Positions 18,001 through 18,774 of a stretch of 57,127 bases of DNA are shown piece by piece. Position 1 is the first letter of the stretch; each line of letters starts with the position of its first letter. The stretch lies in the IMG/VR virus record IMGVR_UViG_2597489870_000006, positions 1-57,127 of that record. One strand, written 5' to 3'. The position numbers and the translations under genes were made by a program. The DNA comes from a virus (lineage: Duplodnaviria > Heunggongvirae > Uroviricota > Caudoviricetes). The notes beneath the pieces were generated by a model. It was not told the origin of the DNA and did no database searches. It saw only the letters and a list, made by a program, of their open reading frames with translations.

Positions 18001-18774
18001 ATGGATATTACTGAGTTTCCTTCTGGAGTAATTGAACACCTTGGCTGGTATGTATACCGATTGATTGATCCTAGGGACGGAAGCACCTTCTATGTAGGGA
18101 AAGGCAAAGGTAACCGCGTATTTGCCCATATGCGCGGTGAAGTGGCAGCGGCTGATGATGACGACTTACTGAGCAACAAGCTAAAGCAAATCAGAGAAAT
18201 AAGATTAGCGGGACTTGAAGTTATCCATGTCATCCATCGACATGGAATGACTGATGAAAAGACGGCGTACGAAGTTGAAGCAGCACTTATTGATGCCTAC
18301 CCTGGGTTAACGAATATCATGAATGGTGCTGGCAGCAATGAATTCGGCGCCGCGCATGTCAAAGAGTTGATAGCAACATATCAACCCGAAACCATAACAT
18401 TTCATCATAAAGCATTAATGATTTCCGTTAACAGAAGTGCAAAGGATTCAGAGCTTTATGATGCGGTTCGATTTAGCTGGCGCATTAATGTCTCTCGCGC
18501 CAGCCAAGCAGAAGTCATTCTTGCGACTGTAAGGGGGATCGTTCGAGGGGTTTTCATTGCTGATAAATGGCTCAAATCAACACGTGAAAATTTCCCTACG
18601 ATGAAATACTGGGACGAGGATCCGGACTTTGAGGCAACACAAAGTTCTCGCTATGGTTTTGAAGGTCGAGAAGCCCCACCTGAAATAGCAAATCTTTATC
18701 TTGGAAAAAAAATACCAGATGAATTAAGAAAAAAAGGAGCTATGTCCCCGGTCCGTTACTCACCTAATTTTTGA
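18001..18774 (+). CDS. GIY-YIG nuclease-domain protein with uncharacterised C-terminal domain (about 257 aa)
   Basis: N-terminal [29 protein letters not shown]...E pattern of GIY-YIG nucleases; ATG at 18001 (track ORF begins at an upstream TTG). Confidence 0.6.

Follow-up and report, generated by a model that had tools for sequence, protein, structure and literature searches.

A CMoRE (PD-T4-3) orthologue, very probably a modified-cytosine-dependent type IV restriction enzyme, in a cargo cassette of a thrW prophage of E. coli ETEC H10407

The window, by which we mean the whole 57,127-nucleotide stretch that was analyzed, matched E. coli ETEC H10407 (NC_017633.1) at 100% identity, with window position x corresponding to record position 353071 - x. 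It contained a complete prophage, which we take to be of the SfV/e14 type. Read from thrW, the gene order was early genes, Q, a lysis cassette, HNH, a P27-type terminase and an HK97-type head, followed by a Mu-type contractile tail and baseplate, an invertible tail-fibre region and the pin invertase. SfV/e14-type prophages carry conversion genes between the tail-fibre genes and attP. The gene considered here, CMoRE, was found just beyond pin, convergent with it and on the strand opposite the tail and late genes. A reading made earlier from the sequence alone had described this context (opposite the late genes, just outside the invertase, in a prophage at thrW), and ARAGORN and RefSeq bore it out. 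The landmarks of the region were as follows.

14517-15731: integrase of a P4-like element, adjoining the 48-nucleotide thrW copy
15895-15942, minus strand: 48-nucleotide repeat of the 3′ end of thrW, marking the distal att of the prophage (97.9% identity over 48 nucleotides when the thrW region was compared with the window by BLAST)
16432-17184: AraC-family gene, between the distal thrW repeat and CMoRE
17760-17830, minus strand: 3′ fragment of a serU-type tRNA-Ser (anticodon CGA), a putative fossil attachment site (nucleotide identity and a partial match to the Rfam tRNA clan)
17804-18000, plus strand: upstream region travelling with CMoRE, near-identical from about 197 bp before the ATG in five contexts
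18001-18774, plus strand: CMoRE/PD-T4-3 coding sequence, 257 amino acids plus stop, ATG start (RefSeq WP_000355476.1)
18794-18832, no strand assigned: terminator-like hairpin where CMoRE and pin converge, marking the downstream limit of the cassette; kept in five of five contexts, with homology ending after it
18832-19392, minus strand: Pin/Gin-type serine invertase of the tail-fibre switch (open reading frame; RefSeq "pinE: site-specific DNA recombinase")
55684-55759, minus strand: thrW (tRNA-Thr, anticodon CGT), the integration site (ARAGORN; in RefSeq, proA lies outside it and the prophage integrase beside it)

The gene had also been called att-proximal. This holds in substance, but the distal thrW repeat lies 2.06 kb upstream of CMoRE, with the AraC-family gene, an IS remnant and the serU fragment in between, and the att-like sequence directly adjacent to the gene is the apparent fossil site at serU. 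The serU fragment, located 170 to 240 bp upstream of the CMoRE start, matched chromosomal tRNA-Ser genes in thousands of E. coli genomes (100% over 67 nucleotides and 96% over 76 nucleotides), and ARAGORN indicated no complete tRNA at 17760-17830. Moreover, the DNA common to all CMoRE contexts begins inside the fragment. The fragment resembles a relic att site, left by a phage that integrated at serU and at one time had the cassette at its extreme end. The 48-nucleotide thrW copy is the junction of the prophage with a tandem P4-like element.

The P4-like element (1-15731) carries integrase, DUF5906 primase-like, ash-family and antirepressor genes and continues past the left edge of the window. 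PADLOC analysis of seven P4-like open reading frames, including one for a 705-amino-acid hypothetical protein at 2168-4285, indicated no known defence gene, and the AraC-family gene and pin gave no PADLOC match. Within the invertible tail-fibre region (19414-20845), alternative fibre C-terminal and assembly genes lie on opposite strands; an inverted-repeat scan near pin (seed 9, minimum 14 nucleotides) detected no obvious crossover sites and only an 18-nucleotide pair at 20178-20321. A second cargo slot was seen between the Q antiterminator and holin genes, where a KAP-family P-loop NTPase gene on the opposite strand (41693-43024, plus strand) matched the PADLOC candidate system PDC-S20 from end to end (E = 9.6e-177) and PifA and QatA more weakly; it is a candidate defence gene. 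An early-region gene of the PAPS-reductase family (53060-53938, plus strand), beside yfdR/yfdQ/yfdP-like genes, gave a partial match to PADLOC SspD (E = 1.3e-14).

The CMoRE open reading frame has the same bounds in RefSeq, where its product in ETEC H10407 is labeled "LEM-3-like GIY-YIG domain-containing protein." An in-frame TTG at 17950 would give a longer open reading frame with 17 additional residues, and we place the start at 18001 because the PADLOC profile, the RefSeq annotation and the crystallized constructs all begin MDIT. The sequence-only reading had noticed N-terminal GIY-YIG motifs, and these were confirmed: VYRL occupies residues 18 to 21, the second motif quoted in that reading occupies residues 31 to 43, and Pfam PF22945 (LEM-3_GIY-YIG) matched residues 28 to 110 with 53.5 bits against a curated cutoff of 27 (E = 3.6e-14), which places the protein in the GIY-YIG superfamily. 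The generic Pfam profile PF01541 stayed under its threshold (13.6 versus 22.6). A domain search had been suggested for the C-terminal half; Pfam returned no domain for residues 111 to 257, NCBIfam matched no family in the protein, C-terminal half included, and PADLOC profile PDLC04031 (PD-T4-3) matched the full length, aligning residues 1 to 256 with profile positions 1 to 255 of 256 (E = 1.7e-140). The protein was also matched end to end by phrog_5356. The stretch outside the nuclease domain, earlier put at about 170 amino acids, is in fact about 130 amino acids long (residues ~128 to 257). An AlphaFold2 model built from single-sequence input had a mean pLDDT of 38.1 and a pTM of 0.35, too low for the model to be of use.

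A PDB search with the 257-amino-acid protein retrieved just two different sequences, each deposited under the title "GIY-YIG domain-containing protein": 9U75/9U8D (E = 2.7e-173) and 9U7U/9U7Z (E = 2.8e-150). According to the text of Liu et al. [quoted passage not shown] The window protein is identical to O157:H7 CMoRE at 255 of 257 residues (99.2%), including all 127 residues of the nuclease domain, and differs from it only at Q169 (K in O157) and N197 (H in O157). The O157:H7 protein (WP_000355475.1) has the same length, two-domain architecture, GIYxY-YIG motif, acidic loop, interface residues and Y127, and is annotated at the homologous thrW-linked locus of O157:H7 EC4115, which like the window has an AraC-family gene, a serU fragment, pin and tail-fibre genes; the prophage is complete in the window, whereas it is a degraded remnant in O157:H7. 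APEC O1 CMoRE (WP_000353910.1) is identical at 218 of 257 residues and has the same architecture and fold family. N197 is common to the window protein and to this active protein, and Q169 occurs in neither crystallized protein. The 39 substitutions relative to APEC O1 comprise 10 in residues 1 to 127 and 29 in residues 128 to 257; thus, divergence is about threefold faster in the sensor domain than in the nuclease domain. Faster divergence of the sensor between E. coli alleles could reflect either relaxed or diversifying selection.

The residues that characterize the family were mapped onto the window.

18001-18381, plus strand: GIY-YIG nuclease domain (Y17, Y19, Y31, R39, E93 and N105; dimer-interface residues V92 and L96; PF22945)
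18154-18165, plus strand: acidic run D52-D55 of the putative autoinhibitory loop (DDDD at residues 52 to 55, the same as in 9U75)
18382-18771, plus strand: predicted C-terminal modification-sensing domain (residues ~128 to 257; 128 of 130 residues identical to 9U75)

Y17, Y19, Y31, R39, R80, V92, L96, Y127 and the DDDD run at 52 to 55 are all present in the window protein, with Y127, the 5hmC contact residue, at the domain junction. Every residue named in the text of Liu et al. (PMC12923530) was likewise found, and we note that R39, E91, E93, N104, N107 and D52 do not appear as residue numbers in the main text of that paper. A seven-sequence alignment was made of the window protein, the O157, CT01 and APEC alleles and three jumbo-phage homologues with 40 to 45% identity. 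Y17, Y19, Y31, R39, E93, N105 and Y127 were invariant in this alignment. Alignment of the catalytic residues had been proposed as a check on the nuclease assignment, and R39, E93 and N105 were conserved across the seven sequences down to 40% identity. From their invariance and the general GIY-YIG pattern, R39 and E93 are the probable catalytic Arg and Glu. A PDB search with the N-terminal domain, at E values up to 10, retrieved CMoRE entries only and neither UvrC nor I-TevI; the catalytic residues are therefore assigned by identity to the mutagenized O157 protein together with invariance in the alignment. Columns 169 (Q, K, R or C) and 197 (N, H, Q or E) were variable, and both substitutions in the window protein thus lie at unconstrained positions. 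We conclude that, as judged from its sequence, the protein is a member of the CMoRE family in its type I, single-domain-pair architecture, since every sequence-level feature that was tested was found in it: the GIYxY-YIG tyrosines Y17, Y19 and Y31, the catalytic Arg and Glu, the acidic loop and a C-terminal sensor with Y127.

The family was first found by functional selection in 2022. The main text of Vassallo et al. 2022 says only "a GIY-YIG nuclease," without the name PD-T4-3, and the link of PD-T4-3 to strain ECOR68 is from Liu et al. (PMC12923530), whose text also describes how the protein works. With O157:H7 CMoRE, T2, T4 and T6 plated about five orders of magnitude less efficiently; T4(hmC) was still sensitive to it and T4(C) was resistant. 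Purified CMoRE bound and cut DNA with 5hmC or 5ghmC, whereas DNA with C or 5mC was neither bound nor cut. Cleavage followed the pattern CN11/N9G, required two modified cytosines and left 2-nt 3′ overhangs. In the crystal structures, UvrC is the closest structural neighbor of the GIY-YIG domain, which has an extra tyrosine (GIYxY-YIG; Y17, Y19 and Y31), and a 15-residue acidic loop between helices alpha2 and alpha3 covers the active site. CMoRE is a tetramer built as a dimer of dimers, and V92S/L96S substitution broke the tetramer and abolished defence. The ligand 5hm-dCTP sits on the C-terminal domain, where its hydroxyl touches the Y127 main chain; for that domain Liu et al. detected no homologue in either sequence or structure (PMC12923530). 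The C-terminal domain, which the sequence-only reading had called unknown, is therefore a known one, as the 99.2% identical protein senses 5hmC and 5ghmC with it. In addition, a Capnocytophaga homologue with 48% identity to PD-T4-3 showed modification-dependent defence and cleavage and was somewhat active on Mu DNA (Rodriguez-Rodriguez et al. 2025, PMC12366544).

The sequence-only reading had offered the protein as either a defence or an anti-defence effector. The first half of that proposal stands on 99.2% identity to an anti-T-even CMoRE; the second half found no support, as the published phenotype is direct defence. One way in which the protein could act otherwise is as an anti-defence effector or as a toxin of the abortive-infection kind, lethal to the infected host. 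It is, after all, a nuclease in a prophage cargo slot, and the "4A" mutant of CMoRE, in which four acidic loop residues are replaced by alanine, cleaved unmodified DNA and was toxic, indicative of latent toxicity (PMC12923530). The acidic DDDD run is intact in the window protein, however, and cells carrying the 99.2% identical O157:H7 protein grew normally and survived at a multiplicity of infection above 1, with T4 DNA depleted genome-wide and host DNA untouched (PMC12923530). Survival at that multiplicity indicates that defence by CMoRE is direct and non-abortive. The high-multiplicity growth curves and the intact host DNA, as published in that paper, contradict both anti-defence and abortive infection, and we give these possibilities scarcely any credence.

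Together, the data suggest how the window protein would act. The identity, motifs, cassette and slot come from the sequence analyzed here, and the biochemistry and phenotype come from the literature on the 99.2% identical protein. The C-terminal domain would bind DNA containing 5-hydroxymethyl-cytosine or glucosyl-hydroxymethyl-cytosine, and a dimer within the tetramer would sense two modified cytosines separated by about 21 bp. The N-terminal GIY-YIG domains would then cleave between the modified cytosines (CN11/N9G) to leave 2-nt 3′ overhangs, and the acidic DDDD loop over the active site would exclude unmodified host and prophage DNA. Incoming genomes of the T2/T4/T6 type would be destroyed directly and non-abortively, such that the lysogen, and therefore the prophage, would be protected.

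GIY-YIG nucleases can also be free-standing homing endonucleases of the Seg/I-TevI type, which spread by site-specific cutting, and the sequence-only reading had raised this explanation. A weak match to phrog_314 ("homing endonuclease," E = 0.0026) points in that direction. Full-length homologues with both domains and 39 to 45% identity were also found in the jumbo phages Serratia Moabite, Pseudomonas OBP and Klebsiella N1M2, at the following positions of the extracted loci.

3001-3765 (L007): Moabite homologue
2992-3753 (L008): OBP homologue
2998-3744 (L009): N1M2 homologue

These are annotated as "homing nuclease" or hypothetical, and "putative homing nuclease" is a depositor's label rather than the outcome of a test. 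The jumbo-phage genomes are ~250 to 285 kb; their homologues keep Y17, Y19, Y31, R39, E93 and Y127, lack the DDDD acidic loop and may act against rival phages whose DNA is modified. The CMoRE survey in the text of Liu et al. (PMC12923530) covered prokaryotic genomes only. CMoRE has the GIY-YIG catalytic core in common with I-TevI, Seg proteins and the UvrC N-terminal domain and differs from them in its extra tyrosine, its 15-residue acidic insert and its biological role. [quoted passage not shown] Moreover, the gene lies between pin and the tRNA fragment without interrupting any gene, it occupies cargo slots of unrelated prophages with varying neighbors, and cleavage in vivo extended across the whole T4 genome, dependent on modification rather than on a site (PMC12923530). 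Nor did any characterized homing endonuclease match the protein; such a match, with a nearby target, had been named beforehand as grounds for refuting the sequence-only reading. We consider the homing explanation effectively refuted, as there is neither a homing module nor an interrupted gene and the published cleavage is modification dependent; the likelihood that we would still grant it is minimal.

In function, CMoRE resembles the 5hmC/5ghmC-dependent type IV restriction enzymes of the PvuRts1I/AbaSI family. Like CMoRE, PvuRts1I and AbaSI recognize two modified cytosines ~21 to 22 bp apart, cut between them and leave 2-nt 3′ overhangs. They too combine a nuclease and a separate sensor of modified cytosine in one polypeptide. 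Liu et al. themselves compare CMoRE with PvuRts1I (PMC12923530). CMoRE differs in that its nuclease is of the GIY-YIG type and its sensor fold is without homologue according to the text of that paper. Because the Pfam and PDB searches of CMoRE returned no match to the PvuRts1I/AbaSI family, CMoRE lies outside that family by sequence.

CMoRE was detected in 838 of 5,426 complete E. coli genomes at ≥95% nucleotide identity, and 372 of those 838 had the arrangement AraC gene-CMoRE-pin. Comparison with the same slot in other prophages had been suggested, and five genomic contexts were compared, the window and four others. In strain 120899, which encodes a protein identical to that of the window, CMoRE follows lambda-type J, lom, stf and tfa genes; in O157:H7 it lies in the prophage remnant; in CT01 its neighbors are a type II restriction-modification system on one side and an acyltransferase gene on the other, on a circular record of 43.7 kb with prophage genes; and in FDAARGOS_1277 it lies between lipase and acyltransferase genes, on the paoD side of the thrW region. 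CMoRE was therefore beyond the tail-fibre genes in every context examined, at least four besides the window, and its neighbors elsewhere in the slot are other cargo (a type II restriction-modification system, acyltransferases and a lipase). The argument from the cargo slot in the sequence-only reading is thereby upheld. Only a cassette of about 1 kb was common to the five contexts with their differing neighbors, consistent with a single-gene system, and all 274 CMoRE systems in the text of Liu et al. are single component (PMC12923530). The hairpin at the downstream edge had a predicted RNA folding energy of -22.1 kcal/mol (z = -2.5; 2 of 200 shuffles as good) and was not called by a simple terminator scan. 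We conclude from the sequence comparison that the gene is carried in a cargo cassette of ~1 kb (17804-18832) that apparently includes an upstream region of its own and finishes in a terminator-like structure.

A sequence of about 22 bp, GCATACAACGTnCCTGCGGTTT, flanks the cassette on both sides in CT01 and FDAARGOS_1277 (4960-5010 and 5800-5840 of each locus). One copy of GCATACAACGTnCCTGCGGTTT is just upstream of the cassette and the other forms the 3′ half of the hairpin at its downstream edge; in the window only the downstream copy is present (18812-18832). The repeat may be either a recombination scar or a shared terminator half.

The native promoter is presumed to lie within 17804-18000. 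A consensus promoter scan of the plus strand upstream of CMoRE found no sigma-70 match of at least 9/12, and expression in the lysogen is therefore predicted solely from the conserved upstream region. O157 CMoRE defends from its native promoter and APEC O1 CMoRE is weak from its own (PMC12923530); thus, native-promoter activity varies among CMoRE genes. PD-T4-3 was one of only two systems found active in the native host NILS69, where one phage escaped PD-T4-3 at its native level but not the plasmid-expressed system (10.1101/2024.12.20.629700).

These observations bear on the only live residual doubt, which in our judgment is slight: the open reading frame could be intact and yet give no defence in H10407, either because it is untranscribed in the lysogen or because K169Q weakens or shifts modification recognition. 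A silent copy would be consistent with the result of the promoter scan, with the weakness of APEC O1 CMoRE from its native promoter (PMC12923530) and with the escape in NILS69 (10.1101/2024.12.20.629700). Against it, the ~270 bp preceding the ATG differ from those of the O157 copy at a single base, ~250 bp before the start, the O157 gene is active from its native promoter (PMC12923530), and the open reading frame is kept intact in the 838 genomes. An altered sensor would be consistent with the lack of Q169 in either crystallized protein. Position 169 is K, Q, R or C among homologues and hence not constrained, however, and the Q169 allele is widespread, in that strain 120899 encodes the identical protein and allele WP_000355484.1 also has Q169. 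We consider it improbable that the copy is silent or altered in this way.

A related speculation, offered at long odds, is that the Q169/N197 sensor allele might read shifted hypermodified bases, such as arabinosyl-hmC or Mu-type carbamoylmethyl-adenine. A shifted spectrum would fit the roughly threefold-faster divergence of the C-terminal domain from APEC O1. Residues 169 and 197 are variable columns away from Y127, the only named contact.

We conclude that the gene at 18001-18774 is almost certainly a CMoRE (PD-T4-3) orthologue that encodes a 5hmC/5ghmC-dependent type IV restriction enzyme giving direct anti-T-even defence. We infer that this copy is expressed and active in ETEC H10407, and cleavage and defence by this allele are predicted from a protein that differs at two residues. 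The family itself is already known: it was selected in 2022, its modification dependence was reported in 2025, and structures, cleavage and mutagenesis followed in 2026. By sequence, this copy departs from published CMoRE only in two conservative changes at variable positions and in its intact host prophage. The result thus carries little weight as a discovery, and its practical value is in annotation, as the RefSeq "LEM-3-like GIY-YIG domain-containing protein" can be renamed a 5hmC/5ghmC-dependent type IV restriction enzyme. The locus also illustrates cleanly how a cargo cassette, made up of a presumed promoter, a gene and a terminator-like end, moves among the att-proximal slots of prophages that are unrelated, and, if a shifted spectrum were true, prophage-borne CMoRE cassettes would constitute a diversifying panel of modification sensors. 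Finally, the analysis predicts resistance to T-even phages, conferred by the CMoRE cassette, in H10407 and in about 15% of complete E. coli genomes, a prediction that is relevant to forecasting host range in phage therapy.
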